A stretch of DNA of 64,000 nucleotides. Source: an uncultured virus (IMG/VR IMGVR_UViG_3300009104_000011). Lineage: Duplodnaviria > Heunggongvirae > Uroviricota > Caudoviricetes. The notes beneath the pieces are model-generated. The model was given only the letters and a program-made list of their open reading frames with translations. It had not been told where the DNA came from and did no database searches. Made by a program: the position numbers and the translations under genes. Numbering within the stretch: position 1 is the stretch's first letter; each line of letters begins with the position of its first letter. Location: IMG/VR virus record IMGVR_UViG_3300009104_000011. The stretch is one strand, 5' to 3'. Positions 2,813 through 27,108 of this stretch are shown piece by piece.

Positions 2813-3016
2813 GGAAGAGTAACACAAACCTTGCTTGATTTTGTAAAGGTGGTTTGATCGACCATCAAGAGAAAATTTAAGGGGTTATGTGCTTAAAGTG
2901 ATGGGTTTCACACCTCATCGCTTGCAGGCTTCTCTTGACGAATGAGAATAAGGTGCCCTTCCCACACCGGAGGGCGATGCAAAGAGAAATGCTAACTCTT
3001 TGCACGCCTTCCACCA
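2813..3016 (+). ncRNA. Structured RNA unit (~204 nt) with terminal stem and 3' ACCA
   Basis: 5' GGAAG pairs with 3' CTTCC followed by ACCA|G; internal stems tcaagagaa/ttctcttga, tgcaaagag/ctctttgca, gccctt/agggc. Confidence 0.65.
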
Positions 3017-5689
3017 GATAGACATTATGGAATAAGAAGTACTAGTGATATTTGATACCGAGGTATATAACCAATGACGTTATGTTACCATCTAGTGTCG
3101 AATAGTCCACTTTCTAATTGAATAAATTCAAAAGAAAGTGTAAACACAGTAAACACACGAGATGAGAATTAGAAATGCACGGTTACCCTTACAGGGCAAC
3201 CTAAAACACAATTCACATCTAGTAAACACGCTCGTCAATCCTATGGATTGATCGACAACTCTAACACCAGATGGTAACATCGATAAAATATACTAATTTC
3301 CCTAGGCGCCCAGCCTAAGGGAGACTATGGCAACGGTAACCAAAGTGCTGACCAATTTAGCATACTGGATACCCATGGCCAGTGTTAAATTACGATGTTC
3401 TTTTTTGGTTCTATAAGGAGAGGTCCCAAGTAATACACGAGGGGCTCTTCGCGAACCAATAAAATCTGGTTAACAAAAATTTAGAATAAAACCCTGTGTC
3501 CAACAAGACCTGGGGTTGGAATGCATTAAATCGATAAAATAATACTAATCATTTGAATGAGTTCGTGGTGTTGTCCGACTACGTGTCCGACAACTAATCA
3601 CTTCTCAATATAAGCAAAATGAATTATCTTACCCTGGTAACATCAGGGAAGGTAGAAAACATTTGAAAGAACAAATAAGTTAGTTAAAACTGGGACGGAA
3701 CTCAGAAATTACGCTAAATAACACCATATTTATGATGAATATGTTTTGACAAGGCTGTGTGACAACAGTGCTCTAGACACATTAGAAATAAATAAACAAG
3801 GTCCAGTTGGTAAGTTCTCCCTTACCTCTTTTGAGGTAAGAGGAATAACAATCTCTACACAGTGGTGTGGAAGAATACTGGATACCGGTGATGGAAAGAA
3901 ATTGAAGTGGAAAATCTAGAGATGGTGGGTTACCGCCCACAACTCTCGGACGAACCCACATTCTTTACCACGGATAAACGTGGAAAAACCTGAACTGCAG
4001 ACGGTATACCCGGAAACATATGGTTTCTGAGATTATATAAACAAAACAAGAAAACAGTATGGTCAGCCCCTGGTAAAGGGTTAGATTATTCTGATAATGT
4101 AAATAATCTAAAACATAAGATTGCGGTCCTGAGGTGAGGAATTCGTAACCTATGCGGACCCTAATTAGCCACAAATACATTTGCAAAAAGACTTGGAAGA
4201 CACATCCCAAGTGACCCAGAGCATCTGGGAAAGTTGCAACAACTAACGAAATAAAATTTTACGTAACGTGCACGTAACGTGGAGCGGAAGATAAACTAAC
4301 ATCTAATGCCAGGTAAAAGACTTTGAACTTTAACTTGGAGGCGATGTCAGGAACGTCGACCTCCTCACACTGAGTGCGCAAAGATTTGCAAAAGAACATA
4401 CTAAGTTCTTATCTAAATTATACTTTAAAGAGAAAACAAAGAATTCTCTTACCGACGCGCGTCGTAGGTAAGAGCACCAAAAAACAAGAATACTTTGTAA
4501 AAGCATGTTGCTACATTATACACAGCAACAAATAAACCGTTTACCAACCTAGTAAAACTCCTCTAACGAGTTGAGACTAAGGAAACTTACACACTAATAG
4601 TAGAATTACCACACGTGACGAACGGTGGCTAACATTACTAGAGTGGACACACACACACTAAACAAAAACCTACAACTAACAAGGCTACAATATTAAGCCA
4701 AAGTAACCTGTCCAATATTAATGGAAAAAGAGTTACTAGTGTAGTTACTATGCGAGATAAAAAGACAACACAAAGGCAAATCGAACACAAACTCATAAAA
4801 AAGAGTGGACTGCGAGGCTGCCTAGACTTTTTGAACCAGGGTTACATTGCAAACGAAAACATTTAGTTTTTCGCCAGCAGTTACAAACTAATGGAGAACC
4901 AAAAGCACTCCAGAAGTGAAGAAGAGAAAAAGCAATGACAATGACGTCGACGAGAAGTCGAACAAAAAAGAGATACACTCTCAAAGATTTGCTAAGCACG
5001 CGGCACGGCCGCGGATACCATTGCTCTTCCCACTAAAACAAAACAAGAAAGTTTGACAGCAGGACGAAGTCGTCCTCCTCCTGGATACATACTATGTTTT
5101 CCGGGGACCCCTGAAATAGACTTTAGAAAAAACAACTAAAGAAAACAATCTTGCATGCCAGAAGAAGAGTGACTTACACGTCACAAAATTTCTGACATCA
5201 TATCAAAATTAATTGATTACATCATCTAATAGATGATTTACATCATACACATTGACATTGACAACTACAAAAAATGAAGACGGCTACCAAATAGAAAATG
5301 GTAGTCATGAAGACTTTCATTAAAGAAACTACAGTTATAGAAGAATGAATACATTGCCTGGTTAATTAAAGAAGAAAAAAGTAAAAAACACAGGTAGTAT
5401 GACAGCAGATTCGAGCCAATAAGGCTAGAACCATGAGAAGACCACCCATTTGGTGGTCTAATCTATATTTACCAAAAATAAAAAAATATGGAAGTGTAAG
5501 AGACATTGCACCTCCTTACGGGTAATGTAGAACTCGTGTAAACAAATTAGTGCGATACAAGACAGTAATCACTGATTAAATCACTGGCGATAGCAGAACG
5601 AACTACCCCTTAGATCTCTCTAATCGAGAGGTTTAGTAGGGAAGACTCGCGCGCTATCTTTAACCCCACTTCCCATAATGCTGTCACCA
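3017..5689 (+). ncRNA. Very large (~2.67 kb) structured RNA, K-turn family
   Basis: No + strand ORF of 60 aa or more; 5' GATAG-A-CATTATGG pairs with 3' CCATAATG-CTGTC followed by ACCA|G; K-turn at 3058-3079; dozens of hairpins joined by A-rich linkers. Confidence 0.7.
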
Positions 5690-5702
5690 GAGAGAGAAAA
5701 TT

Positions 5703-7430
5703 ATGAAAAATAATAACGAACTTGAAAAAGAATTAAGCATGATGAGTAGAGCAAGTCTACCGTGTCTGGCGGTTTCATCGCCAGAGACTAAGGAGATTGT
5801 AAAGGACATTGTCCAATACGCAGCAACAACTGGAAGCCATGGAGAAACCAATAAAGTACCTCGTGTACTAGTTTGGAGAGTCTCTAGTGGCTTTGAGGAG
5901 TACGCTGCGCACGTGGATGATGAAGACGGAGAAGAACACGTGATAGTCGATGGAATTAGTGAAATCGACTTGACGATGGCTGACATTAGACCCGTAATTG
6001 GGTCTGACGGAAGACCAGTAACTTACGCCGCAGCAGACGAATTCCCTGGAGCAAACGTACCGTTTGCTGTAGATTATATGACCAATTACGATACAAAAGA
6101 AGAAGGCAGAAATGTCATCTTCGTTTTGAGAGATTGGCAACGCTTTATTGATGCCAATGCAGAGCATGTCGATAGGCAACTCGCATTGTTTGAAAACATA
6201 CTTTTAGGGGGAAAGAAGATTATCGTCTTACTTTGCCCTTCAAGGTGGAATGGGGATAATATCCCCGTAGAACTTAACAGCCACATTAGGCTGATTAGGT
6301 ACGATCTACCTGACAAAGAAGACCGAATGGCCTTAATTGAACTGGAGAGACTTAACTTGACCATGGCGAGTGCTATGGGCAAGGACTTCGTTCAGGCTTT
6401 CAAGAACATCACTGAACCTGACATAGAATCCTACGCAGATGCATGCGCTGGGATGACTAGACAGCAAATTCAGGATACCCTAGTAATGTGCGCTGCAACG
6501 CACTTTAATTGGGACATAGATTTCATTCTCGATGAAAAGAGAAAGGCAGTTGAGCAAGCGGGTTTCACCCTGATTCGCCCATCTGCTGGTTTTGAGGTAA
6601 TTGGTGGACTCACGCCCCTAAAGCGCTGGGTCAAACTAATTTCTCGACGGTTCACAAATGCTGCGAAAGATTACGGTTTTATCCGTTTTATTCGTGGACT
6701 TCTAATGGCCGGTGTTCCCGGCTGTGGAAAGACGGCTGTCGCTAAGGCGATGGCTAACGAGATGAACATGAACATACTGATGGTTGAAGCACAGAACCTC
6801 AAAGGCTCACTTGTTGGTGAGTCTGAGGCAAAGGTGCACAGACTATTGGAGATTGCTAAGGCAGCGGCTCCGCTTATCGTCTTCGTTGATGAGGCAGAAA
6901 AGTTGCTTGGTAAGTCAGAGGGACTCCACGATGGAGGCGCTCATGACGCTGTCCTAGGACAGTTTCTAACATTCATGCAGGAAGATGACTCAGGAGTGTT
7001 CTTCGTCTTTACGGCGAATAACATGAATAAGTTCTCGCCGGAACTCGTGGACCGATTTGAAGGTCGATTCTTTATCGACCTGCCCGAACCCGAGGAGCGT
7101 GAGGAGATCATTAAGATTCACCTGCGACTTCGTAATCAAGATGTCAATCGATTTGACATCAACGAACTAGTCAAGAGGACTGCAAAGTTCTCTGGACGAA
7201 ACATCGAGGATGGTATCGAAGAAGCAATGACCGTGTCCTTTAGCGAGGACCGGCCACTTGAAATGCAAGATCTTGTCGAAGTCTTCAAGGTACTGGTTCC
7301 GACCAGTAAAACCAAGAAGGATGAGATTGAACACATGAGATCGTTCGTAGAGAACGGAACCATGCGGAAGGCTAATAACGTGGTTGTGAGGGATAAAACC
7401 CAAAAGCAATCCCGTGTACGGAACTTTTGA
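5703..7430 (+). CDS. Ycf46/SpoVK-like AAA+ ATPase
   Basis: Walker A GVPGCGKT, Walker B IVFVDEAEK, LVGESE pore loop, FTANN sensor, degenerate N-terminal AAA domain. Confidence 0.9.
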   Translation: MKNNNELEKELSMMSRASLPCLAVSSPETKEIVKDIVQYAATTGSHGETNKVPRVLVWRVSSGFEEYAAHVDDEDGEEHVIVDGISEIDLTMADIRPVIGSDGRPVTYAAADEFPGANVPFAVDYMTNYDTKEEGRNVIFVLRDWQRFIDANAEHVDRQLALFENILLGGKKIIVLLCPSRWNGDNIPVELNSHIRLIRYDLPDKEDRMALIELERLNLTMASAMGKDFVQAFKNITEPDIESYADACAGMTRQQIQDTLVMCAATHFNWDIDFILDEKRKAVEQAGFTLIRPSAGFEVIGGLTPLKRWVKLISRRFTNAAKDYGFIRFIRGLLMAGVPGCGKTAVAKAMANEMNMNILMVEAQNLKGSLVGESEAKVHRLLEIAKAAAPLIVFVDEAEKLLGKSEGLHDGGAHDAVLGQFLTFMQEDDSGVFFVFTANNMNKFSPELVDRFEGRFFIDLPEPEEREEIIKIHLRLRNQDVNRFDINELVKRTAKFSGRNIEDGIEEAMTVSFSEDRPLEMQDLVEVFKVLVPTSKTKKDEIEHMRSFVENGTMRKANNVVVRDKTQKQSRVRNF

Positions 7431-7467
7431 AAATTGACCTATAAACGGTCATATTAGAGGAGAAATT

Positions 7468-8115
7468 ATGGCAAAAGAATTTGTAAGAGAAGGACTAAAA
7501 TTTAATGGCAAGAACGATTGGTTTTACTTAACCGATTACTTTGCTGTCCTACATTATTACAGAAGTTTGAGAGAAGAGGAAGAAGACACTGCTTTTCCTC
7601 CTCTAATCCCAAAAAATGATTTCTCAGAAATACCCCAAGACGTCGCAGAAGAAGTTGATTACATAATTGACCATTTGTTAAAGGAGATTGAAACCCTAGG
7701 CTCTAATGCCGGGGATCCAATGACTCAGATAGCACATGGTGAGGTTAATATGATGGGCTTCATGATGCACGATCCGCTATTGAAAAAGGCGATTGGTAAT
7801 GTGGCAATTGAGATATTTATGAGAGATGCAAAAATTACTGAGGATGAAGCATATGAAAAAGCAAAAGCAGAACTGCCAGAATTTATGGCAGATTTTGAAG
7901 ACTTCCTAATGGAAGTTGCTAGTTACTCAATGAGAGAAATCTCAATGAAGGCGGCTAACCACGGTATCAGGATAACTGATGTCAGAGAACTGCTGCAACC
8001 TAAAGTGGCTAGAATAGGCTGGAAGGGTATTAAATTACACTTTGAACAGCCCAGCAAGTCTAGTAAATCTACAGATAAACCTGGTAGAGATACTAGAGAT
8101 ACTATGTTTGGATAA
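7468..8115 (+). CDS. Hypothetical protein
   Basis: 215 aa ORF, GAGGAG leader after junction. Confidence 0.8.
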   Translation: MAKEFVREGLKFNGKNDWFYLTDYFAVLHYYRSLREEEEDTAFPPLIPKNDFSEIPQDVAEEVDYIIDHLLKEIETLGSNAGDPMTQIAHGEVNMMGFMMHDPLLKKAIGNVAIEIFMRDAKITEDEAYEKAKAELPEFMADFEDFLMEVASYSMREISMKAANHGIRITDVRELLQPKVARIGWKGIKLHFEQPSKSSKSTDKPGRDTRDTMFG

Positions 8116-8141
8116 TACTACTCAGTATATTAGAGAGAACA

Positions 8142-8948
8142 ATGGATAAGAAATTAAATATTGAACTAACAAAAGAGGACCTTGAAACTCTTGCTATGAT
8201 GATTCAAGACGGAAAAGTCACCTTGGAGATGTCGCTTTCAGCGAAAGCGATAGAACCAAAGGAAGACCCCGCTCTAATCAAGAGGCAAGAAGAGGAAGAG
8301 GCTCAAAAGTTAAGAGAGAAAGAAGTAGCAGCATATCTATTGCTGCCGGAGAATAAGTTTTGGATAAACTGTTCTTGGAACGAGTGCATGACGCACATGA
8401 CAGGAACCCGAAAAAGGGAAGACGACATTATACTTAGAAAGGGAAAGACTACGGTCGCCTTTGATGAGTTGAACGGCAAAAGCAAGACTAGCCATAAGGC
8501 CGGAAAGCCTTTGGGTAAGAGACAGATGAAACTGGTGAAAGCCTTTAGATCGGAATACGGAGTCTCTGAGAAAGAGATGAAGCAGACCAAGTACATCTAT
8601 GAGAAGGCTGACTTTGACAGTCAAGTCTTTACTCACTTGAAAGAAGCCGTGAATGAAGCAAAGACAAACGGACACAATTCGCTTGTCTATGATAAACTCA
8701 GCGATGCTGAGACAACTTCTGAAAAAATCGGTTCAAAATGGATTAATGCCATAGTAAATAAAATCGTGGATACTCAGGGCAAGCCCCTAGAATTCGATGA
8801 TGAACTACTATACAAAGAGGCAGACATAGTCGTACGTGACTATGTTGCCAAACAACGAGCCGGTCCAAATAAGGACTACTTTATCTCAATTGGTGAAGGA
8901 GTCATATACATCCTAAGTGATGCATATGACGAAATCATCGAAGGCTGA
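8142..8948 (+). CDS. Hypothetical protein
   Basis: 268 aa ORF after junction motif. Confidence 0.8.
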   Translation: MDKKLNIELTKEDLETLAMMIQDGKVTLEMSLSAKAIEPKEDPALIKRQEEEEAQKLREKEVAAYLLLPENKFWINCSWNECMTHMTGTRKREDDIILRKGKTTVAFDELNGKSKTSHKAGKPLGKRQMKLVKAFRSEYGVSEKEMKQTKYIYEKADFDSQVFTHLKEAVNEAKTNGHNSLVYDKLSDAETTSEKIGSKWINAIVNKIVDTQGKPLEFDDELLYKEADIVVRDYVAKQRAGPNKDYFISIGEGVIYILSDAYDEIIEG

Positions 8949-8978
8949 GTGCTTATTGCGCTCTATTAGGAGAGAAAT

Positions 8979-9893
8979 ATGAATAAAAAAGTATTTTCGA
9001 TAGCGCCTAGTTTCGACTGTAAGTTGAAATGCGAGGGATGCTATTTAACCACCGGAGTAACTCAAGATATGAGAGATCTAGTAAGATCAGATTCATACTT
9101 TACAAGGGCTATAGAAAGTGCCTCACGCGAAGGATATACCGAGTTTGCAATAACTTGGAATCCTTTTCCTGGAGCATTTCAAAAGACCAAACAATATGTA
9201 CTATATGCCAAGTCATTAGGCATGGAAACCAGTGTGACAACTGTCATGCAGTGTCTCCATGAGATGGACGAGGTCTTCATTAAGAACTTAGACATATTGA
9301 CCATATCTGTAGACGATATGCGATTCCAAAGTATGTATGAATTTCAGCAGATGAAATACGCTGCATTTCATGCACTTGAGTTAAGGTTCCACAATAACAA
9401 TGAAGAGACTGGTTTTAGTGACCACATATTCTTTAGGAGCCAATTTCCACACTTACAGATTAATTACAATCTGCTGTGGACTCCCGGTGTATTTGAGTGG
9501 CTGTACGAAGATACAGACACATTTAGAGATGCAATTGGAGAAATCCAGTATCCTGATACGATACAGCATCTCATATACAAGCCTCTTTCGATTTACGAAA
9601 GTGAAGAGTGGTTCTGGACTAATTACCAGCGAGTCTTTACTGACTTCGACTGGGTTAATATTGCAGGTAATGGACAAAAGTACATTGGCGATATCGCATT
9701 AAATAATCTCATGGGAGTGAATAACTGCCCTGGTCAAGATTATCAAATGGTTGATGTCGATCCGATGGGCTTTGCCAGACGCTGCCCAGAAAATCCAGAT
9801 GCTTACGATGTCTCTGACATTGGAAAATTATCTGGATTACTCAGAAACGGCACACCGTGCCAGAATAATGCTTGTAACTGCATCACAGGATGA
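8979..9893 (+). CDS. Radical SAM protein
   Basis: CxxxCxxC (CKLKCEGC), LTISVD motif, C-terminal Cys cluster (SPASM/twitch-like). Confidence 0.8.
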   Translation: MNKKVFSIAPSFDCKLKCEGCYLTTGVTQDMRDLVRSDSYFTRAIESASREGYTEFAITWNPFPGAFQKTKQYVLYAKSLGMETSVTTVMQCLHEMDEVFIKNLDILTISVDDMRFQSMYEFQQMKYAAFHALELRFHNNNEETGFSDHIFFRSQFPHLQINYNLLWTPGVFEWLYEDTDTFRDAIGEIQYPDTIQHLIYKPLSIYESEEWFWTNYQRVFTDFDWVNIAGNGQKYIGDIALNNLMGVNNCPGQDYQMVDVDPMGFARRCPENPDAYDVSDIGKLSGLLRNGTPCQNNACNCITG

Positions 9894-9901
9894 TGCTATT
9901 A

Positions 9902-10051
9902 GGGAGAGAGGAGTACTGTACCAAGTTTGTTGGTTTCTTGTTATATTGTCTCTTTGTTCGGCCTAACACGCCGATTTTCATCACAGAGGATCGCTTAAGT
10001 GCTAACGTATACTTGCACAGATAGCCGTCCTCCGGTACTCCCTCCCCACTA
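9902..10051 (+). ncRNA. Structured RNA unit (~150 nt)
   Basis: Terminal stem gggag..ggagtac/gtactcc.ctccc followed by ACTA|G. Confidence 0.65.
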
Positions 10052-10086
10052 GATGAGGAGAGAAGAGACAATAAAAACCAATACTA

Positions 10087-10443
10087 GGGAGAGTTAAACT
10101 GAGACGCAAGTCTATGAAATGACGGCCATCCACTTCGATTACAGTAAGTAACGATTCCGGCTCATACTTGAGCCCGAACGACGCTTGGGTCATCCGACCA
10201 CTGCGCTTTACCGCGCTGACAAGCAGCACGCCAGTAATCGCACGCCCTGGGTTCCCCAGCGCTAACACCGGAGAGCCGTCTCAGACCCATACATCGGGAC
10301 CTTGATCCTTATCATCGGTCCCTTGTCCACGCACACGGCAACAGATTAGGCTCGGCGCCTAATCGAACCTCAATACACCGTGTACTGGCGGTGGCTCGCA
10401 TTCGCGATCCACATGGGCCTGAGAAACTTAGAAACTCCCACTA
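10087..10443 (+). ncRNA. K-turn family RNA
   Basis: GGGAG/CTCCC terminal stem + ACTA; CTGA-GAC-GCAA-GTC-TAT-GA at 10099-10117; many GC-rich hairpins. Confidence 0.7.
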
Positions 10444-10903
10444 GGAAGAGAAAAACTGAGACGAAAGTCTATGACGAACCTCGGCATACATTCACGTAAT
10501 TTCCTCGGTCTATGCAGAAGTTATGGTAGCATTGATATCGTACAGCAATATCCAGGGACCCCCTTGGATATTCGTAGAAGTGCAAATCAATACTCCACAA
10601 CCATCTGTATAGCACAAGGAAGTTACTACAATGTTGCCTCGGCTCTACTCTGTGTTTTTACAATAGGTCAATAGAATCGACCACTCTAGTAACGAATAGG
10701 GCAGACTCCTTAAGGTCTGCAAAAGAGGGCTACGCCCCGACTCACTAGCGCATACGCGCAAGACAACCAAGGTTGTTTGGGGAGTCTACCCGTCTTCGAT
10801 TACTAGAGTCGGTCATTCTATGGCACCTAATGTACCACCTAGACAAACGGTGGATAACACAGCCGCGGAAACCCGCGAATCGTAGAGAACTAGTCTTCCA
10901 CTA
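10444..10903 (+). ncRNA. K-turn family RNA
   Basis: GGAAGA/TCTTCC + ACTA; CTGA-GAC-GAAA-GTC-TAT-GACG at 10456-10476; rod gaccactctagtaacgaa/ttcgattactagagtcggtc. Confidence 0.7.
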
Positions 10904-10911
10904 GATTACTA

Positions 10912-11474
10912 GGAAGAGAAAATAAAACTGAGATAACACAATGACGTTATGTCACCAAGCATCCTCGACGCAAGAAAGCCCGCGCTAGGCATACGCCCTA
11001 CGCGCTATAGGTTATTTGTGTCAACTGAGGATTATGGTGACATTATTTGATGATTACAACTGGCTACAATAATACCGCGATTGGTAAAATTTTGCGGGCT
11101 CTGAGGGCACCTTTCTAGCATGAAATTGCAAGGAAGGGATACGCGATTAGAACTTATGTAGACTGTAACACCATCAAAATCGGTTAAAGTGTCCGAACGA
11201 ACTATTGTAAATTTAATTCACAAGAAATAGATAACGACTAAGAAGACTCACACTACGTGTGATTTTCTTGTCACGAAATACATTTCGATGTTAAATTTGC
11301 AACACTTAGATTCGGACATATTCCACCGATTACGATGGTGTTACAGTAAACATAACTTTAATCACTACCATAGGAGATTACGTATTCACGAAATAACCTA
11401 TTAAAGTGAAGCAGTAGGCGTACCCACTCGGGCGGCGCCTCGCCTTGTAATTTCATGCTAAATTTCTTCCACTA
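10912..11474 (+). ncRNA. K-turn family RNA
   Basis: GGAAGA/TCTTCC + ACTA; CTGA...AATGACG at 10928-10946; long rods (ctgtaacaccatc/gatggtgttacag; tagcatgaaattgcaagg/ccttgtaatttcatgcta). Confidence 0.72.
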
Positions 11475-11818
11475 GGATGGGTTGGGAAACCGAAAACTAA
11501 ATGCGAATTTAATACCGAGATCGAAAGATCAATGACGTTCCGGTGACGTCCATCATACGGATCAGATAGATCCTCCTGATGGCTCATTGGGGAGTACTCC
11601 CCTGAGCATACATGAAGATACGAAATTCGAGCCGCCTTTGGCTAATCGAACGCAAATTGCTATTTCGTACTTCATAGACGCTCAACATTCGTCACCGGTG
11701 ACATTCTGGAACGATGCACATTCGCGCATCTACGAATCATAGATTCGATACCCTCACAACAGACTTTCTGTTGAGAGCGTCCCAGTATGTCACACCCACA
11801 TAGTTTTCCCATCCACTA
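11475..11818 (+). ncRNA. K-turn family RNA
   Basis: GGATGGG/CCCATCC + ACTA; CCGA-GATC-GAAA-GATC-AAT-GACG at 11515-11537; stem ccggtgacg/cgtcaccgg. Confidence 0.72.
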
Positions 11819-12371
11819 GAGAAGTTTTAACACTGAGGTCGAAAGACCAATGACGTTGCGTTGACAAAGATGCGCGCGTTTTCACCATAGAATATCTTCA
11901 CGCCTATAAGAGTGTGAAGCAAGTACCTTACGGTACGATAGACCTGATTACAGTCTAATAATCTATGGTAAAATCGTGCTCCTTCGTCAACGCATTGCAT
12001 GAATGAAGGTTCTAATTCATCATAATGAATAGCCTATTATCAATCTGAAAAACCTCGATTTTGAGGCCTAAACGAAGATTACATTCTGCAACGCGGCATG
12101 ATGACAGATGAGGCAAGCCATTCAGGTCTAAGGACCTTCTGACACGCCTAGGATTTCATAATTTCTATACAGAGCAATCATTCTCACTTAGAGGTGTAAG
12201 CGCATACGCGCAAAGAGAGTCACGTAAACGTTTGACTCTAGCCTTAAGAATGAAAACTCGTATAGCAAACAACGAATTCCTTCAAGACAAAACATAGAAC
12301 TTACACCTCCACGCAAGTGGATTTAAGGTGACGTTCACGTGTCATCATGCCGCAGATGTTACTTCTCAACA
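11819..12371 (+). ncRNA. K-turn family RNA
   Basis: GAGAAGT/ACTTCTC + AACA|GATG; CTGA-GGTC-GAAA-GACC-AAT-GACG at 11833-11855; stems gcgttgac/gtcaacgc, gcggcatgatgaca/tgtcatcatgccgc. Confidence 0.72.
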
Positions 12372-12372
12372 G

Positions 12373-17271: not shown

Positions 17272-17288
17272 ACGGGATGGACTATTAG

Positions 17289-18956
17289 ATGAATAATAAT
17301 TCAAAAATGACAGAAAAGAAAATATTGAGATACACTGGAGCCGATTTGATGGACTTTGCAGACATTAGTTCTGCAATATATCAAAACGCCCGAATTAAGG
17401 CTGGTATGCTTACTAGACAAGTAGGTGACCAGACAATAACGTATCCTGATGTAATTGATTTACTGACTACACAGGAACAAGAATACCATTTAAGAAACAG
17501 TGCGGACCTTAACAGGGTTCGTAATAATTTTGTTCCAATGCACGTAGACACACTTCTACACTCGACCATAAGTCAGTATAGAAGTAACACTAATACTAAC
17601 CAAAGTAACTATGTTAACGTTGGTTATGGATTATATTTTCATAGAACACAAGTCACCATTGAAGAAGGTGACGAATATTTCTACATAAACTGTACATTCG
17701 ATCTCTATATTGATGATCGATTGACAACAGCGAGAGCAGGAGCGTTGGGACTCAATGACGATAGTTATTTGATTAATCCCCAGGTCGGTGGGAGGGCTAT
17801 TCCCTCTACATCAGAAGACGATACCCAACTTACACAGTTGGCTAGCCGATTATCGGGAAGATCAACGCCGTCGCGTAGTAGGAGAAACAATCCCTACAAC
17901 CGACATAATATACGCCAGCAACAGAACATACCTAAGTCAGAAAGCGCCAGAACTGAATTACGGCGTTTTCTAATTAGGGACCGTTTCCCTCACATAAAGG
18001 AGACGGCGATGAGAAAGAATAGAGTGCTTAATGCACTCCATTCTTGTGTAGCAATAAAGAAAACTATGAAATTGTCGAAAGAAAAGGATGATACAAGTAA
18101 AAATATAATTTTGAACCATCCTTGGTTTTATTCGACGAGACTTACTACGGCTCTTAGAAGTGCTAGATTAATGCAGTACTCTAAGGGCGTTGACTACTCA
18201 ATGCAGATAGTTGGTAATGGTGTTGCAAATAAGCGACATACGATGAGATTTGCTGGATTTATTGGTGAAGATAATCGGTACTTAGTTGCCAATATTATCT
18301 CCACAGATGAAGTACCAGATGACCTATGCTCTATATTGAAGAGAAAGGTCGCTAAGAAAAATTATCCTGATACAAAAAGTATGAGATTGTTGAGTGTGAA
18401 TGCACTATTAGCAACTTATACGAACGATGAGTTCAAAGACGATGTTATTGACATAACTAATATCCTGCCTCCAGAATCAAACCTAACTTTAGTTAGAATT
18501 GGTGAGTACGAAGCAGGTAGAACAGGCGATACTTTGAGTCAATATTGCGTTATATCAGACGGTGTGTATGAAGTAAATATACCAACACCGTCTTTTTTGC
18601 GCAGAGACAAAAAGAAAATGAAAATAGAGCCTGGTAAGTACGCAGTATGCGTACAAGAAAGTGAGACCGACCTAATCAAATATAATGATATAGTCGGAAA
18701 AGCCTTAGTTGACATAATCGTCGAACCAGTAAAAACCAGACTTTCTATAACGAAAGGACTTTCTGGTTCTGGGAAACTCAAAGTTAAATTATCAAAGCGA
18801 GCAGCCCTACAAAAGGGAAGTGCTCCAACCAAGTCTAAGGGTAAAACAAATAAGGGAATTCGTGCCACTAGTAGGGCAGGAATTATCTTTGGCAAATCAC
18901 AAAAGAAAGGTGACACGGTAGTCGTCGATGACGAAGAACGTGAAACCTTAGAATAA
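17289..18956 (+). CDS. Hypothetical protein (555 aa)
   Basis: Long ORF at ATTA|GATG. Confidence 0.8.
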   Translation: MNNNSKMTEKKILRYTGADLMDFADISSAIYQNARIKAGMLTRQVGDQTITYPDVIDLLTTQEQEYHLRNSADLNRVRNNFVPMHVDTLLHSTISQYRSNTNTNQSNYVNVGYGLYFHRTQVTIEEGDEYFYINCTFDLYIDDRLTTARAGALGLNDDSYLINPQVGGRAIPSTSEDDTQLTQLASRLSGRSTPSRSRRNNPYNRHNIRQQQNIPKSESARTELRRFLIRDRFPHIKETAMRKNRVLNALHSCVAIKKTMKLSKEKDDTSKNIILNHPWFYSTRLTTALRSARLMQYSKGVDYSMQIVGNGVANKRHTMRFAGFIGEDNRYLVANIISTDEVPDDLCSILKRKVAKKNYPDTKSMRLLSVNALLATYTNDEFKDDVIDITNILPPESNLTLVRIGEYEAGRTGDTLSQYCVISDGVYEVNIPTPSFLRRDKKKMKIEPGKYAVCVQESETDLIKYNDIVGKALVDIIVEPVKTRLSITKGLSGSGKLKVKLSKRAALQKGSAPTKSKGKTNKGIRATSRAGIIFGKSQKKGDTVVVDDEERETLE

Positions 18957-18987
18957 ATTTGGTGAAAGCCAATATTAGGGAGTAGAA

Positions 18988-19311
18988 ATGTCTGAAAAGA
19001 TTAACCAATTTACAACCATAACCCAATGTGAGTGCGTTGGGCGACCAAAGCAAGAAGGCAAAGGCGAGCGCATACAGTGCAAGAAGAAGACAGAGGTTAC
19101 CACAAAGTGGCACAACCGTGTCGAACTGCGCGAAGTACGCAAGCAATTGAATGCGCAAGGTTGGCACAATATCCGGACACTTGGAGACAAGACCGGTGAT
19201 CACCACATGGCAGAAGGTACTGCCCAGGTAGGAGGCCGTTACTGGCTTTGCCCTTCCTGTGTAAAGTACATTGCGAAGATGCGAGATCTTCAATCCTCAA
19301 TTTGGGGATGA
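18988..19311 (+). CDS. Putative Zn-binding protein
   Basis: CxC...C and CPSC motifs; GGGAG leader. Confidence 0.65.
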   Translation: MSEKINQFTTITQCECVGRPKQEGKGERIQCKKKTEVTTKWHNRVELREVRKQLNAQGWHNIRTLGDKTGDHHMAEGTAQVGGRYWLCPSCVKYIAKMRDLQSSIWG

Positions 19312-19340
19312 AATTAGACGATGAAACAAACGTCTCTTAG

Positions 19341-19856
19341 ATGAGTTACAGTTGCAAAAAATGCAAACTAGAATTTGAGACTGAGGCAGCACATAAACTG
19401 CACATCTCAGTAATTCACAAAGAAGTTCCAAAGAAAGTAAAAAAGTCTACCAAGAAGAAAAAGGAGCCACTCCTCACTATAAAGGGGGAGAAAGGATACC
19501 TTTCACCTGATGGTAGGCACGTAATCGCATATCTTCCAGATGGTAAGTCCAAGACAATAAAGGACTATGCTAAGAAGATGCGAACAGACTTTCCAGATAT
19601 CAAACTTGGAGACAAATTATCTCCGAAAGATGCAAGGGACTTATTCAAGCACAATCTTGATGTTCAAAAGAGCATCAAGGGTGCTAAATTGGAAGTAACC
19701 AAACTGATTGAAAATAAAATTGGAATCCGACGTTACATGTTGGAGAACAAAAAATTAACAATCGCTTGGGCAGAAGGGCCATGTTTCAAAGACTCCAAAA
19801 CTAAGAGTCTCCGAGGCAGGCACTACATACTTCCAGTATCAGTTCGCAAGAAGTGA
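19341..19856 (+). CDS. Basic protein with N-terminal C2H2 zinc finger
   Basis: CKKC-x12-HISVIH. Confidence 0.7.
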   Translation: MSYSCKKCKLEFETEAAHKLHISVIHKEVPKKVKKSTKKKKEPLLTIKGEKGYLSPDGRHVIAYLPDGKSKTIKDYAKKMRTDFPDIKLGDKLSPKDARDLFKHNLDVQKSIKGAKLEVTKLIENKIGIRRYMLENKKLTIAWAEGPCFKDSKTKSLRGRHYILPVSVRKK

Positions 19857-19863
19857 ACTATTA

Positions 19864-19971
19864 GGAGAGTCAGGCTTCGGCCTGAGTGAACGGCAAACTG
19901 GGTTTAAACTGCGAACAAGCATGACGGATTTATCCGTCCATCACACGCCTCAGCAATCCGGCTCTCCACTA
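19864..19971 (+). ncRNA. Small structured RNA unit (108 nt)
   Basis: GGAGAGT/GCTCTCC terminal stem + ACTA|GATG; tcagg-c(UUCG)g-cctga hairpin; gacgga/tccgtc hairpin. Confidence 0.7.
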
Positions 19972-19972
19972 G

Positions 19973-20176
19973 ATGTCTCTAAGAAAGAGAAAGAACAAAA
20001 TCCACTACGCTAAACCCAAGCGTAGTAAGAAGAACCCAAGTAAATTTTGGAAGAAATTTAGGACTGGGTTCTCTTCAAAGGCACAGGCCAAAAGGGCCTT
20101 GCATAAGATGAAACATAATCGCTTGCTGAGAAAGCAAAGTGAAGACTCCGACATAATTCTCGGAGAAGAGGAGTAA
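19973..20176 (+). CDS. Small very basic protein
   Basis: K/R-rich 67 aa ORF at ACTA|GATG. Confidence 0.65.
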   Translation: MSLRKRKNKIHYAKPKRSKKNPSKFWKKFRTGFSSKAQAKRALHKMKHNRLLRKQSEDSDIILGEEE

Positions 20177-20186
20177 TCCTCATTAG

Positions 20187-20285
20187 ATGAGTAATGAACT
20201 TGTTTTTATCGGAGTTATAATCGGACTGGCCTTCCTATGGTCACTAGACCGATATAGAAACTCTCTAAATGATGAAGAGGAATGA
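20187..20285 (+). CDS. Micro membrane protein (32 aa, MSNELVFIGVIIGLAFLW...)
   Basis: ATG at junction, one hydrophobic helix, stop inside next hairpin. Confidence 0.6.
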   Translation: MSNELVFIGVIIGLAFLWSLDRYRNSLNDEEE

Positions 20286-20302
20286 GACACTTCCTCAATT
20301 AG

Positions 20303-20389
20303 ATGAGTGATCAAAATATCCTATTAATTGTAATACTAGTGTCCACAGCGTGGGCCTACTATTCATACAAAGTTACCATTGGACGGTGA
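20303..20389 (+). CDS. Micro membrane protein (28 aa, MSDQNILLIVILV...)
   Basis: ATG at junction, one hydrophobic helix. Confidence 0.55.
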   Translation: MSDQNILLIVILVSTAWAYYSYKVTIGR

Positions 20390-20398
20390 CTTAATTAG

Positions 20399-20584
20399 AT
20401 GAGCAAAATCGAAGATGAAGTTTGTGAGAAGATACAAGCAAGAGCAAAAGTCGGACTCAAGAAGTACGGAACCACAATGGAAAGAGAAGATTTCTCTGAC
20501 CTTGACTGGATGCAGTATCTTCAAGAAGAACTGATGGATGCTGTTGTATACTTGCAACGCATGATGAATGACCAGAAGGTTTAA
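20399..20584 (+). CDS. Conserved phage protein, MazG-like helical motif
   Basis: GLKKYGTT..R.D...LQEELMDAVVYL. Confidence 0.65.
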   Translation: MSKIEDEVCEKIQARAKVGLKKYGTTMEREDFSDLDWMQYLQEELMDAVVYLQRMMNDQKV

Positions 20585-20612
20585 GTCTGACTATGTTAGA
20601 CCAACCTATTAG

Positions 20613-20741
20613 ATGACTATTACTACAACCCCAAGTTGGTGCCTATGCTGGCGCACACCTTGGGAATATGAGCATATGGCAGACGATCGTGGTAAATGCA
20701 AACATTGCGGAAAAAAGATCCAGCATTACTTTGCATCATGA
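20613..20741 (+). CDS. Micro Zn-binding protein (42 aa)
   Basis: ATG at junction; CLC and CKHCG. Confidence 0.55.
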   Translation: MTITTTPSWCLCWRTPWEYEHMADDRGKCKHCGKKIQHYFAS

Positions 20742-20750
20742 TCTCATTAG

Positions 20751-21347
20751 ATGGAAGGGATACCTAACATAAAAATTGTGAAAGTAACATCGTGGATAGC
20801 AATCCCTGCTGATATGCAGGGAGAGGATGTCATAGGAACAGAATGGGCGAACGTCCTTCATGTTACCAGCGAAGACATACTAAGCCCCACGGTAGTTACA
20901 GAAACAGCCCACTTAGACGAACCGGTCTTGGTGGAAGAAACAACAATGACTGAGAAACCGAAAAAGCGCGGACGCCCTAAGGGCAGCAAGAACCGCAAAT
21001 CCAAGACGGCAAAGAGAACCAAGAAAGCGATGAAAGACCTCAAGCAGAACAAGAGAGTCTTTACCGGCGCACTCTATGGTTGGAATGCTACAAAAGATGG
21101 TTCGCTCGTTCCTAACTGGAAAGAGCAGAACAACATCGATTGGATGAAAAAAATGATTGGCCTAGGCCATTCTGCTTCGTGGATAGCCAGAATATTGGCT
21201 AATATGAAAGTCACTGGAAAGAGAGGAGGAAAGTGGAATTCTTCTAGCGTTTTGAGAACGACTAGAAATAAATTTCACTCTACTCGTAATGAAGATGAAG
21301 CACCTAAGTGGTTCAAGAATCAGAAAACTCTCAAGTTGAAAGTATAG
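20751..21347 (+). CDS. Protein with AT-hook and recombinase-type DNA-binding domain, no catalytic domain seen
   Basis: KKRGRPKG; LYGW...IARIL....GKRGGKWNSSSV resembles the DNA-binding domain of large serine recombinases. Confidence 0.65.
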   Translation: MEGIPNIKIVKVTSWIAIPADMQGEDVIGTEWANVLHVTSEDILSPTVVTETAHLDEPVLVEETTMTEKPKKRGRPKGSKNRKSKTAKRTKKAMKDLKQNKRVFTGALYGWNATKDGSLVPNWKEQNNIDWMKKMIGLGHSASWIARILANMKVTGKRGGKWNSSSVLRTTRNKFHSTRNEDEAPKWFKNQKTLKLKV

Positions 21348-21366
21348 GCGAATACCGCCTTATTAG

Positions 21367-21705
21367 ATGAGCGAATATAGATATTTTGTTTATGCGGAAA
21401 AGAACCTTCGTGGTTTGAATTCCAATGAAATTAATGATTATATTTTGGGTGCTTGGGAAACCCGTATGCCAGACTATGCTATGGAGTATTGGTCTGGTCA
21501 CGGACAAGCATTTGGTTTTCGCAAATTAACTTGGAAGAATATCTTCAAGGGTAGAAGACATCGAAGTTACATCAAGTCATATGATGTTTCATTTGATGTT
21601 TCTACTTTAGAAGAAGGAAAAAATCTTCTTGCTAGTTTGCAACACCTAACCAAAGACGACGGCGTAACAGTACGCTTAGGAGTCTACCCCACAGAGGAAC
21701 ATTGA
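21367..21705 (+). CDS. Hypothetical protein
   Basis: ORF at ATTA|GATG. Confidence 0.7.
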   Translation: MSEYRYFVYAEKNLRGLNSNEINDYILGAWETRMPDYAMEYWSGHGQAFGFRKLTWKNIFKGRRHRSYIKSYDVSFDVSTLEEGKNLLASLQHLTKDDGVTVRLGVYPTEEH

Positions 21706-21717
21706 TTCCTCAATTAG

Positions 21718-22836
21718 ATGAGTGATAAAATATACACAACACCCACAGTTTACAAGAAAACTAGTACGGGCAAAATCCAGCAATGGACTGCCTGGGTCGA
21801 GAAAACCAAGACGGGCTTTCTATTGAAAGTCCAATCTGGTCAGACCGATGGTAAGTTGAAAGAAACGTCAGGACAAGTTATTGACGAAGGAAAGCAAAAA
21901 CGTTCAGCACAAGAGCAGGCCATATTCGTGGCTAAATCTAAGTTGAAGAAAAAGCGGGATGAAGCCTATTTCGATACAATCGAAGAGGCGCAGACCAAAA
22001 TCAAGTTGCTACCAATGCTAGCGCACCCAATTACAAAGCGCGGCCATAACATAACTTACCCTGCAATCGTTCAACGAAAATTTGACGGAGTACGGTGCCT
22101 CGCCCGAATCGAAGATAACGGCAAGGTAACTTTACTGTCAAGAAAAGGCAAAGAGTTCCCTCACCTTAAGCACATTAGACGCGAAGTTATCAACTTCAAT
22201 AAAAACCCGTCCATAGTGCTAGATGGTGAACTATACTCTGACACCTTAACATTCCAAGAATTAGTTGGACTTGTAAGAAGAGTGACACTCAAACCGGGAA
22301 ACGACACGCAGATGCTTGAAGTTTCCCTTAGAGTGTATGATTGTATTGACCTCGATAACGAGCCAGATTTCAAAGACCGATACGTAACTATCACCGATAT
22401 AACAAACGGTGCTAAGTATCTGAGTCTAGTTGAAAACGTAACCGTAACTTCTGAAAAAGAAGTTCACGCAGCGCAGGCTCGATTCGTGGCAGAAGGCTAT
22501 GAAGGTGCTATGGTTAGAAATCTAACCGGAGCATACGCCATTGGAAAAAGAAGTGCTAACCTCCAGAAAGTGAAGACTTTCTTAGACGGCGAATATGAAA
22601 TCGTCGGGTTTACGCAAGGAACAGGCGACGAGACCGGTTGCGTCATTTGGATCTGTAAGACCAAAGACGGACAGGAATTCAGAGTCAGACCTCGTGGAAC
22701 CAGAGAGGAAAGGCAAGAATATTTCAAGAACGGAAAAGACTACATCGGCAAGATGCTCACGGTAAGATACCAAGAGTTGACCGATGATGGTATTCCAAGA
22801 TTCCCAGTGGGAATCGCCATTCGTGACTACGAATGA
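21718..22836 (+). CDS. lig: ATP-dependent DNA ligase
   Basis: Motif I QRKFDGVR, LDGELY, EGYEGAMVR, LQKVK, C-terminal OB with PRFP. Confidence 0.92.
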   Translation: MSDKIYTTPTVYKKTSTGKIQQWTAWVEKTKTGFLLKVQSGQTDGKLKETSGQVIDEGKQKRSAQEQAIFVAKSKLKKKRDEAYFDTIEEAQTKIKLLPMLAHPITKRGHNITYPAIVQRKFDGVRCLARIEDNGKVTLLSRKGKEFPHLKHIRREVINFNKNPSIVLDGELYSDTLTFQELVGLVRRVTLKPGNDTQMLEVSLRVYDCIDLDNEPDFKDRYVTITDITNGAKYLSLVENVTVTSEKEVHAAQARFVAEGYEGAMVRNLTGAYAIGKRSANLQKVKTFLDGEYEIVGFTQGTGDETGCVIWICKTKDGQEFRVRPRGTREERQEYFKNGKDYIGKMLTVRYQELTDDGIPRFPVGIAIRDYE

Positions 22837-24185: not shown

Positions 24186-24577
24186 GATACGAACTTATTC
24201 ACTACCGATTAGCCCTACCACGTGATAGGCTCTGATCCGATGTGATGTATCGCATAGGCCTCTGCATTTGGCAGCAAATTGCGCAGAACCCACCCTATGC
24301 AGCAAAACCGGATTCTTAACTAATATTCAAAAAAAAATTGAATATAGCCAGAATCAAAAACCACCCGGTAGTGTGGTATTAAAATAAAAATGAGCAGGTA
24401 AAATCACGCTAAAAAAGAGCGGAGGACCTGTTGTCTCTTGATTGTAAATATGACAGAGATGGAATACTGACTGTGCTTAGTCTAACGACGTATTCCCGCG
24501 GCCTTTCATGGCCTTCAAAATAAATTAATTTATCTTGATGGAAAAAAACATAATTCGTTGCATAAAAAGCAACATTA
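24186..24577 (+). ncRNA. Non-coding unit between two junction motifs
   Basis: No ORF; hairpins (agcccta/taggct, tatattcaa/ttgaatata, ctgttgtc/gacag); ends gttgc-ataaaaa-gcaac-ATTA|G. Confidence 0.45.
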
Positions 24578-25338
24578 GAGAGTATACAATCTGAGGTCGA
24601 AAGACCAATGACGTAAGCCGAAAATTAAGCAAACTTGTTTGCAACGATTGAGACTATGCTGCGCAAAGACGCTGCGCTTCTCAATTTGCTGCACTCGTTC
24701 ACTTAACGGCTCATCCTACGGACAAGCACTTCAGAGTCACAACTCTGAAGCATTACCCTAACATCCCTACCACCTTGCGGCTCCGCTGCGGTGCTAACGG
24801 GAGGTAACGGGCACGCAAAGAGTAGATTGCGCAGCGCGCGATCTACTCGGTGCTAATCCTACGGAACAACATCTCAAAAACGAGAACGATTAAGTTTCGC
24901 CTTTGCTGGTTAACGCTGCGCGTGTGACCTGCGGTCACAAACCAACTGCGACGAAATGCACTGCGTTACTTAATCAACGGATCGAAGATCCTCGTTCTAC
25001 GTTTTGTTGCATGTTTGAGCCTATTTATCGCCTACACAACCAGACCTACGGTCATAGACTTGGCAGCCCAAGCGCTGCAGACTCATGGTTGTGAAAGGCT
25101 TCGGCTCCTCGGAACACTGCGGCTTTTAAGTCGCAAACTGATGACCTTGCGCCAACGGACTGCGCTATTTCATACTAAAATGAAATTTGCTACGCAATCG
25201 CTAGTCCTGCGAGTCAATCAACCACGAACGCCTCTACGAGGCTTGCTCATTTCACGAGCACATTATTGATTGGCCCTCGCGGCTTGGCTCAACCGGTTCA
25301 TCGCCAAGTTCCTCGGAAACTTAATCTTACTCTCACTA
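24578..25338 (+). ncRNA. K-turn family RNA (~760 nt)
   Basis: GAGAGTA/TACTCTC + ACTA; CTGA-GGTC-GAAA-GACC-AAT-GACG at 24591-24613 (identical to 11833 copy); many hairpins (cttcagagt/actctgaag, gagtagat/atctactc). Confidence 0.72.
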
Positions 25339-25783: not shown

Positions 25784-26439
25784 GAGAGTTCTTACACTGA
25801 GGCCACAAGCCTATGACGTTTAAGTAACCACGTCTAAAGAACCGCATTAGGTTCTGAGACGCTACGCTATCCGACCTACATAAACAACCGTTCTAAAGTC
25901 CATCGCGGAAATCCGCGAAAGGTATTGGCAAATGAATTACCAATACAGTTGCATTCGCAACGCCGGAGAACGACTTTTGTGGGCAATTGCCCAGTCGTCC
26001 TTGTCCGGTCGAGTGATGGAAAAGAACGATGTTCAGGTAGATAGTACTGCGCATAAAGCGCAAGCAGACGAACATTGGTCAATAAATTGACCGCCGTTCG
26101 GAAACGGCTCTGCAGAGCATTAGATTTGCAACAGCATTACGACAATGGTAGTGCCACGAGGAACAATAGGAGCAGAAAGAATTTGACAATCAAAGATTGA
26201 GCGTGATTCCACGCTTGTCTAAATCAACCGGCCTACGGCCACAGGTTGATTCTTAACGACTCAAATTAATACTGGTCCATAATGTTCCACAGGCACCCTC
26301 CTCTGTCGTAACACTTGTAACGCACGTTAGATAAAGCAGCATTAGACTGCATTATAGTGAAGCGAATCAGATGATTCCAATAGGATGGGACCAAGTTCCC
26401 ATCTTAGCAGAGAAACTTAAAAACTAGATCTCTCAACTA
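25784..26439 (+). ncRNA. K-turn family RNA (~656 nt)
   Basis: GAGAG/CTCTC + (A)ACTA; CTGA-GGC-cacaa-GCC-TAT-GACG at 25797-25818; hairpins ggtcaat/attgacc, gccgtt/aacggc. Confidence 0.68.
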
Positions 26440-26440
26440 G

Positions 26441-26584: not shown

Positions 26585-26592
26585 GTCTATTA

Positions 26593-26721
26593 GATAGGAC
26601 CAAGACTATTGACCGCTAGCGTTGTGTTAGTTTTATTTCTTGGTATGATCAAGGACTAATACAACCGTGTAGGTCGGTATTGGGGGGAAACCTATCTGAC
26701 AGTCGGGAAAGACCGGCACTA
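26593..26721 (+). ncRNA. Small non-coding unit ending in CCG-GAAAGA-CGG type hairpin
   Basis: Bounded by junctions; gtcgggaaagaccggc + ACTA|G. Confidence 0.45.
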
Positions 26722-27108
26722 GGAGAGATAATTAAACCGAGGTGAAAGCCTATGACGTACTCTTGCTAAAGTACACAGACATTCACAGACGAACATAAAG
26801 TGAAACGCAGATGTGGTGCATGCGCACCTTATCGCGAGATTAGCGATTATAACCTTCTGTGCAAATCTGGGTATTTATCAAGAGGTATCCGATCGCATGC
26901 GAGTGTGACGGTATCACTTCAAAACAAAAAGAACGCATATGCGTTTGCTTCTAATTCTTATGGGAGTTTTACACACAAGCGAAGGGCAACTAATAGGCTA
27001 TGCATTTAGTAAAGCCGTAGCCCACTCGCTGGTGTAAAGCCCCATATCATATTAGTTTAACAGTGCAGTAAACTGCATTTGTTTTGAAAATTAGTTTACT
27101 CTCCACTA
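26722..27108 (+). ncRNA. K-turn family RNA (~387 nt)
   Basis: GGAGAG/CTCTCC + ACTA|GATG; CCGA-GGT-GAAA-GCC-TAT-GACG at 26737-26757; stem gcgagtg/cactcgc. Confidence 0.72.

Follow-up and report, generated by a model that had tools for sequence, protein, structure and literature searches.

A-Y-Y-A^G, a five-letter mark between genes and non-coding RNAs of an archaeal DNA virus, as a candidate RNA-end signal

Introduction

Animal mitochondrial transcripts are punctuated by tRNAs, at which RNase P and RNase Z cut to leave leaderless mRNAs, with FASTK acting at non-canonical junctions, as set out in two accounts (10.64898/2026.07.30.741833, PMC12242768). The stretch of DNA considered here, which we call the window, is the whole 64-kb record IMGVR_UViG_3300009104_000011 of an uncultured virus in IMG/VR (Caudoviricetes; G+C 42%), in which a five-letter mark, A-Y-Y-A-G, stands between nearly all of the genes and non-coding RNAs of a 40-kb block; we write it A-Y-Y-A^G where the boundary between its four-letter tail and its G (G+1) is meant. 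This block shares with mitochondrial punctuation a same-strand polycistronic layout, abutting units, and mRNAs that start at the start codon or one letter before it, but it belongs to an archaeal DNA virus and uses a five-letter word and a helix rather than tRNAs; the one tRNA in its 64 kb sits inside a unit of its own, and the enzyme would here be hypothetical.

Other systems resemble parts of this arrangement. Processing signals that look like tRNAs include plant mitochondrial t-elements, the MALAT1 mascRNA and viral tRNA-like structures; as in these, the first nucleotide of the units described here is paired, and their short single-stranded 3' tail starts with A and is ACCA in 6 of 29 units, whereas the units give no T-arm, cloverleaf or L-shape signal, their tail is mostly ACUA, and the same mark serves mRNAs that lack a stem of this kind. 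Initiator-type late promoters, such as poxvirus TAAATG, baculovirus ATAAG and phiKZ TATG, are likewise very short, lineage-specific words fused to the start codon at which the RNA begins. The viruses that use them encode an RNA polymerase, whereas none was found here and the window has a TFB instead, and the present word doubles as the 3' tail of the RNA before it, with covarying RNA helices on its flanks.

Histone pre-mRNA 3' ends are formed by a CPSF73 cut behind a stem-loop and ACCCA, and mimivirus 3' ends follow a 'hairpin rule'. The window repeats the order of helix, four to five unpaired letters ending in A, and RNA end, with the differences that the downstream product is kept as the next RNA and that the hairpin is missing at about half of the gene junctions. 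Kink-turns bound by L7Ae/15.5K occur in box C'/D' K-loops and the U4 5' stem-loop. Many of the non-coding units carry a hairpin that is like these in its tandem G-A letters, 3-nt bulge and covarying C-stem; unlike the known RNAs, they place it 12–40 nt from the 5' end of RNAs of 344–2673 nt that match no Rfam family and lack an ACA box as well as any guide or box C/D architecture. Finally, one report describes a conserved 12-nt 3'-end processing motif in Giardia non-coding RNAs (PMC3510501), which is similar in that a short word marks the ends of many unrelated non-coding RNAs and different in that it is eukaryotic, is another word, concerns 3' ends only and does not involve abutting units.

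Results

The mark heads genes and non-coding RNAs alike

The marked block extends from 158 to 40210 on the + strand. Within it the mark heads genes and non-coding units; it is confined to that one strand and is almost absent from 40.6–64 kb. Forty-five of its sites are of a leaderless type, A-Y-Y-A-G-ATG, and about 12 are leadered, with a purine-rich, Shine-Dalgarno-like leader between A-Y-Y-A-G and the ATG. For an unbiased count we took every distinct + strand open reading frame (ORF) of at least 60 codons from 1–40.6 kb of the window and from its relatives, which are 31 loci (L002 from IMG/VR, L003–L032 from metagenomes) whose primase-like protein is 62–87% identical. A-N-Y-A-G lies immediately 5' of the first ATG in 205 of these 311 ORFs, as ATTAG (111), ACTAG (81), ACCAG (7), ATCAG (4) or AACAG (2), and at such marks G+1 is followed by AUG with no acceptor-like stem.

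The site logo reads C(-6) T(-5) A T T A G A T G A, with a pyrimidine-rich run on the 5' side of the mark and G-purines or G-AUG on its 3' side. No TATA (about -26) or B recognition element (BRE, about -33) is conserved, as every position from -45 to -7 of the 45 sites holds at most 0.18 bit, and host-type promoters therefore do not stand in front of each gene. The mark precedes the primase-like gene in all 31 relatives despite differing upstream sequence: some have a non-coding unit there, others a hairpin with or without a small ORF, and across L002–L032 the elements in this position are of at least four kinds.

The coding layout respects the mark as well: none of 55 ORFs of at least 60 codons crosses the next mark, and 36 of the 55 stop 4–40 nt upstream of the presumed cut position (median 11.5 nt). 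Local hairpins (5 bp or more) are common where gene meets gene: in 115 of 315 cases the hairpin stops one base short of the tail and in a further 70 directly against it, compared with 28 of 315 at random positions. Junctions and spacers of particular use below are these:

8129–8133, + strand: mark in front of a leadered gene, ATTA^GAGAG...ATG; an RNA contig from run X8 has its left end exactly at 8133
10052–10086, + strand: spacer between two marks, 35 nt, unstructured
10904–10911, + strand: piece of 8 nt between two closely spaced marks
12368–12372, + strand: mark between a non-coding unit and a gene; one RNA contig starts at 12372 and another matches up to 12371
38427–38448, + strand: gene-to-gene junction with a 6-bp local hairpin, ATTA^G and ATG

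The reader of the mark is probably lineage-specific, because the mark is not a gene-start signal in G002, G003 and G004, three further virus records, each about 100 kb long, with a related TFB: inspection covered the 13 copies in the first two, where no ORF of more than 24 codons opens at the ATG of any copy, and G004 has a single copy. Literature searches that did not extend to supplements found nothing in print on this word or on such punctuation in archaeal viruses, and term look-ups in PMC5434244 and PMC11706807, again without supplements, returned no mention of non-coding regions, promoters, motifs or hairpins.

Helices close the non-coding units from G+1 to the base before the tail

Eleven non-coding units of the window are closed by a helix that runs from G+1 to the base before a 4-nt tail, and a twelfth has a 5-nt tail. 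Ten of the 11 in-register stems are uninterrupted (5–8 bp); in the other, at 9902–10051, the helix contains two bulges. The units and the non-coding stretches among them are as follows:

2813–3016, + strand: non-coding unit; 5-bp stem GGAAG/CTTCC, tail ACCA
3017–5689, + strand: giant non-coding unit of 2673 nt; 5-bp stem GATAG/CTGTC with one G-U pair, tail ACCA, kink-turn 3058–3079
9902–10051, + strand: non-coding unit; G+1 pairs with 10047, two bulges, tail ACTA
10087–10443, + strand: non-coding unit; 5-bp stem, tail ACTA, kink-turn 10099–10124
10444–10903, + strand: non-coding unit; 6-bp stem, tail ACTA, kink-turn 10456–10476
10912–11474, + strand: non-coding unit; 8-bp stem, tail ACTA, weak kink-turn or K-loop 10928–10946
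11475–11818, + strand: non-coding unit; 7-bp stem GGATGGG/CCCATCC, tail ACTA, kink-turn 11515–11537
11819–12371, + strand: non-coding unit; 7-bp stem GAGAAGT/ACTTCTC, tail AACA, kink-turn 11833–11855; an RNA contig starts at 11819
19864–19971, + strand: short non-coding unit of 108 nt; 8-bp stem, tail ACTA
24186–24577, + strand: non-coding stretch bounded by two marks; its 5' G and its 3' end fall in separate local hairpins and do not pair with each other
24578–25338, + strand: non-coding unit; 7-bp stem, tail ACTA, kink-turn 24591–24613
25784–26439, + strand: non-coding unit; G+1 pairs with 26434, 5-nt tail AACTA, kink-turn 25797–25818
26593–26721, + strand: non-coding stretch; its two ends in separate hairpins, the 3' one abutting the tail ACTA
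26722–27108, + strand: non-coding unit; 6-bp stem GGAGAG/CTCTCC, tail ACTA, kink-turn 26737–26757; the primase-like gene lies directly 3'

A preliminary description of this DNA had placed the boundary of the units at A-Y-Y-A^G, and the present analysis agrees: among the 47 distinct kink-turn-bearing units of the window and L002–L032, when searched over 1200 nt for stems no shorter than 5 bp, 38 pair in exactly the register from G+1 to the base before the tail, whereas non-nested shifted registers account for 0–10 of 47 and outward extension by one pair for none. Unconstrained thermodynamic folding gives the same picture, the first five bases being paired at 0.80 or more and the last four at 0.02 or less in 11 of 11 units, a set that leaves out the giant unit 3017–5689. 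The five stems that had been quoted as examples (those of 2813–3016, 3017–5689, 11475–11818, 11819–12371 and 26722–27108) are all present, uninterrupted and in this register, but the count of 13 such units in the window comes down to 11, plus the one shifted by a nucleotide through its 5-nt tail.

Covariation had also been invoked for this boundary, and it is real but narrow. In 29 distinct end pairs with a stem, pair 1 is always G-C, and pairs 2–5 change only between A-U and G-C, apart from a single U-A, so the compensatory changes leave the 5' strand purine and the 3' strand pyrimidine. GAGAG/CTCTC is common to the majority of units, and 51% of non-cognate combinations of 5' and 3' ends consequently reach 5 bp too, a figure that tempers the evidence from the stems. 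Their length ranges from 4 to 9 bp across units.

Tail type goes with the upstream element

Tails of the 29 distinct units are ACTA (21), ACCA (6) or AACA (2), and those that follow ORFs are mostly ATTA. For 66 rule-defined sites in 1–40600 of the window, ATTA occurs after the end of a non-coding unit once and another tail nine times, and elsewhere ATTA occurs 46 times and another tail 10 times, so that tail type is associated with the upstream element (Fisher 2e-5). Where the type of unit changes at a junction, it is the upstream element that the tail matches, and these observations support the tail being part of the upstream RNA. In the L002-type relatives all marks have ACTA, however, and shared cassette ancestry could therefore also account for the pattern.

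Kink-turn-like hairpins lie near the 5' ends of nine units

Nine units of the window carry, 12–40 nt from the 5' G and on the + strand only, a hairpin of the form C-Y-G-A, stem-loop, N-A-U-G-A-C-G, which we take, from its consensus, to be a kink-turn. It has the C-stem, the 3-nt bulge and tandem G-A/A-G on both strands. The window and its relatives hold 43 distinct copies, again on the + strand only, and in 24 of them three pairs of the C-stem show 10, 5 and 8 double changes with none broken; an exact-pattern scan of IMG/VR for the kink-turn word returned no match. The C-U-G-A hairpin could also suggest a hammerhead, which was rejected by eye because its 3-nt bulge is as in a kink-turn, and no ribozyme was detected by Rfam; for the junctions, a bulge-helix-bulge was likewise rejected, by eye only.

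The unit bodies range from 108 to 2673 nt and are rich, by eye, in GNRA- and UNCG-looped hairpins. None matches an Rfam family, ribozymes included, at the gathering score, and only chance-level matches appear at E up to 5. One guess at their role is that they recruit or titrate L7Ae. The giant unit contains the reverse complement of A-Y-T-A-G-A-T-G four times (3089, 3216, 4300 and 5223) where 0.14 is expected; on the + strand of the 31 related loci the reverse complement of the gene-start word occurs 0 times against 4.8 expected. All four copies are predicted to be at least partly helical (mean pairing 0.57–0.84), and a role as free guides to the mark is unproven. Elsewhere, a hairpin of about 200 nt (11154–11355) lies within unit 10912–11474; its Rfam match to a microRNA precursor is far below threshold on either strand (38 and 36 bits, where the gathering score is 211).

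The single tRNA lies inside a marked unit

The preliminary description had likened the unit ends to a tRNA acceptor arm. The geometric part of that likeness stands, as the first nucleotide pairs with the one that precedes a 4-nt tail in the 38 of 47 units and in the folding of 11 of 11 described above. The remaining parts do not: the tail is N-C-C-A in the form of ACCA in only 6 of 29 units, ARAGORN and Rfam found no T-arm, cloverleaf or L-shape signal in the units and no tRNA-like body in the unit regions, even at E up to 5, and the tRNA site does not coincide with the mark. With these features wanting and the geometry present, we do not file the units as tRNA-like structures.

The one tRNA that ARAGORN and Rfam detect, a tRNA-Lys(CUU) at 38161–38237, lies within the following unit:

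38156–38243, + strand: tRNA-Lys(CUU) unit; 5-nt leader with G+1 as its first letter, tRNA 38161–38237 with encoded CCA, then TC and ATTA

Here G+1 to +4 pair with the four nucleotides before the tail, while the tRNA itself starts 5 nt past G+1 and ends 6 nt short of the next cut. The unit thus keeps the end rule although its RNase P and tRNase Z sites lie elsewhere, and hence the mark is not an RNase P site. None of 16 related loci examined has a tRNA.

Some RNA contigs begin at G+1

Assembled contigs from four metatranscriptome runs of two studies were compared with positions 2601–22600 of the window, and all counts of contig ends rest on the 32 of 170 contig pieces that were listed. Three of the 32 have a left end exactly on G+1, where 0.24 is expected (P 0.002): at 8133, an mRNA site, in run X8, and at 11819 and 12372 in run X10. 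A fourth piece, from X10, has an 11-letter loose end that puts its start at about 18978, also a G+1; this piece, about 18978–19314, is of unit length and ends two letters before the next tail end, again among the pieces listed. The contigs are weak evidence for ends at G+1. Of the 149 five-letter sites, 43 are spanned by listed pieces, which may be precursors, read-through or DNA. Per-bin contig depth is unsuited to ranking units against genes.

One X6 piece matches the window through 12371 and then continues for 88 letters unlike it, by record coordinates, which we read as a mosaic breakpoint at the mark and not as an RNA end. Mosaic breakpoints coincide with the mark at 12371/12372 and upstream of the primase-like gene in L002–L032. 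Pairs of marks 8–19 nt apart are seen at 10900–10912, 17025–17042 and 26423–26440, and in L002 at 2488–2510, 10529–10552 and 12295–12318, and look like scars of cassette exchange at the mark. Circular units were considered and set aside, as the sole backward joint among seven listed (19097 to 18988, X6) does not join unit ends; in this joint, within region 18978–19316, nine intervening letters resemble the 5' start of the unit, and a library chimera is possible.

Discussion

We tentatively favour a reading in which A-Y-Y-A^G is a lineage-specific RNA-end mark, probably the site of an endonucleolytic cut in polycistronic RNA, with the terminal helices protecting both ends of the products. In the 40-kb same-strand block, every mRNA, tRNA and non-coding RNA would then start with G and end with the 4-nt tail of the next mark; long polycistronic transcripts would be cut once per mark by a lineage-specific and probably virus-encoded endoribonuclease, yielding leaderless (G-AUG) or short-leader mRNAs along with free non-coding RNAs. 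In stable RNAs, the helix from G+1 to the pre-tail base would seal both ends against exonucleases, and in mRNAs the 5' end would be left free for the ribosome, with a local hairpin 0–1 nt before the tail at the 3' end. Each mark would close one RNA at its 3' end and open the following one at its 5' end, for which a single endonucleolytic cut is the simplest mechanism, and cleavage is preferred over initiation because there is no TATA or BRE before the units and because a TFB implies the host polymerase. The geometry itself would follow from a cut at this place: the tail is unpaired because its complement would sit upstream of the cut, and the longest possible terminal helix then runs from G+1 to the pre-tail base, as observed. 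The likeness to an acceptor end would thus be mainly a by-product, not a signal to RNase P, tRNase Z or the CCA-adding enzyme. The geometry with its conservation and covariation, the generality of the mark and some contig ends at G+1 are observations, whereas cleavage in place of initiation, protection of the ends and a reader encoded by the virus are inferred.

Several observations weigh against this reading. Scans of the window proteins returned no candidate nuclease to read the mark, and a hairpin of at least 5 bp is missing at about half of the gene junctions. Copies of A-Y-Y-A-G inside the units are not obviously avoided, and their pairing (0.62 versus 0.64) does not mask them, so that the true signal must exceed five letters and is not fully defined; structural masking of these internal copies is unsupported, 6489 of 10,000 random sets being equally high. 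Contig ends carry no information on 5'-triphosphate or monophosphate, and the libraries may contain DNA. An invariant G+1 followed by a purine-only 5' strand would, moreover, fit an initiating RNA polymerase at least equally well.

It is possible, though in our view somewhat less probable, that the mark is a private transcription start, in which Y-Y-C-U-A-Y-U-A-G would serve on the DNA as a minimal promoter or initiator for a virus-specific machine, RNA would start at the G, the upstream helices would stop the polymerase or stabilise 3' ends, and each unit would be its own transcript. Phage-type polymerases initiate with G and then purines, as would be the case here, and the fusion of a short word to the start codon recalls poxvirus, baculovirus and phiKZ late initiators. 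The lineage-specificity of the mark, the RNA contigs that begin at G+1, and the presence in the window, outside the marked block, of a TFB and of a second protein with a weak, sub-threshold match to PF21913 all accord with such a start. Yet no RNA polymerase was found in the 64 kb, and a TFB implies the host enzyme, which would need the TATA and BRE that are absent here. The long-range terminal stems are features of RNA, with -45 to -7 unconserved, the tail type tracks the upstream and not the downstream element, and at several places two marks stand only 8–19 nt apart.

Cutting of the RNA at the mark would mean that uncultivated marine archaea have a DNA virus which expresses some 40 kb in the manner of mitochondria, with a five-letter word in place of tRNAs, and this would point to an unknown sequence-specific RNase; if the mark is a start site, an archaeal virus would have a transcription system that does without TATA/BRE promoters. 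On either reading the mark fixes the exact ends of a dozen large, structured, kink-turn-bearing RNAs, which can for that reason be synthesised and tested directly, and it offers a compact RNA-end tag. The contribution of this window lies in the helices that would seal the ends, in the rule on tails, and in the units that carry the tRNA and the kink-turns.

The preliminary description had proposed that host tRNA enzymes read the geometry of the unit ends, such that the units would mimic an acceptor arm and be set free by host RNase P, cutting 5' of the paired G, and/or by tRNase Z, with CCA possibly added. In geometry the unit ends match an acceptor end exactly, the first pair is invariably G-C, the tails are A-C-Y-A in 27 of 29 units, ACCA among them in 6, and so nearer N-C-C-A than the ATTA that follows ORFs, and in tandem arrays one cut 5' of each G would free all units. 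We nonetheless consider this unlikely, as the same mark heads the 205 of 311 ORFs and functions at the starts of mRNAs whose G+1 is in no stem, the genuine tRNA lies 5 nt away from it, the units have no T-arm or tRNA-like body and a stem that varies from 4 to 9 bp, and host housekeeping enzymes would not impose a lineage-specific word.

More doubtful still, as a variant of the favoured reading, is cleavage by a beta-CASP nuclease of the archaeal aCPSF1/FttA type that would cut after Y-A, 4–5 nt past a helix, uncoupled from termination. The order of helix, four to five unpaired letters ending in C-A or U-A, and then a cut is what such an enzyme would be expected to leave, given that archaeal aCPSF1 prefers CA and that CPSF73 cuts behind the histone mRNA stem-loop (ACCCA); but only about half of the gene junctions have such a helix, as a hairpin of 5 bp or more, host FttA leaves lineage-specific words unexplained, and no such gene was found among the window proteins scanned. 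We give very little weight to the notion that the units are excised and circularised with the helix closed by an A-Y-Y-A tetraloop, or that the mark is a DNA-level site of cassette recombination, for although a C(AYYA)G tetraloop nicked on the 3' side would have exactly this geometry, and different cassettes stand at the same junction in relatives with one RNA contig diverging after 12371, homologous exchange at 10–12 conserved letters explains the mosaic equally, the block has no recombinase with a clear family match, only a partial match to a PHROG 'integrase' at 20751–21347, and no sequence feature requires a circular form.

To return to the cleavage reading, one could imagine, as a long shot, that a private ribonucleoprotein encoded by the virus reads the mark in RNA, with one of the kink-turn units, assembled on host L7Ae, as its RNA component. 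This RNase-P-like guide or ribozyme would cut at A^G and so free leaderless mRNAs and end-sealed RNAs, and the word would co-evolve with the RNA in each lineage.

The remainder of the window gives the setting. Its DNA is present in marine and seawater metagenome runs, and its proteins include MCM, two archaeo-eukaryotic primase-like proteins, an ATP-dependent ligase, RNase H, RusA, ribonucleotide reductase and a TFIIB/TFB homolog; the majority of the rest have no match. Among TFB homologs that bear a name, the nearest belong to Thermoplasmatota (about 50% identity). A scan of genome contigs for the related locus returned no match and hence no direct host assignment. In a phage collection the primase-like protein had no match, MCM had only distant ones, and there was no close relative of the window. 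The gene list given for magroviruses in one passage of PMC5434244 resembles that of the window, a likeness of gene sets only.

Sequence searches of the PDB with three large unknown window proteins returned nothing usable, and Atlas look-ups of window proteins returned one viral DUF and otherwise nothing usable. Family scans of the proteins and a six-frame search for D-x-D-G-D found no RNA polymerase within the 64 kb, the sole match of the latter being an acidic repeat in a 216-aa ORF, and no reverse transcriptase was found among the window proteins scanned. The full TFB homolog and the second protein with the PF21913 match, which is cyclin-like, lie at 45157–46104 and 47657–48589, beside MCM and a primase on the other strand.

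Three further observations concern small ORFs. A 39-aa zinc-ribbon ORF at 33856–33972 has a sub-threshold match to Nop10p (E 0.009; 16.5 bits against a cut-off of 27.2), recorded only because Nop10 is a protein of the H/ACA ribonucleoprotein. At 34373–34714, two neighbouring small ORFs have NikA-like ribbon-helix-helix matches (E 5e-11 and 1.5e-11), each headed by the mark. Finally, 38427–40067 holds a run of paralogous small genes whose products start M-S-N-E-S-E-N/I, and a nearly identical 6-bp hairpin and ATTA^G precede each of them.

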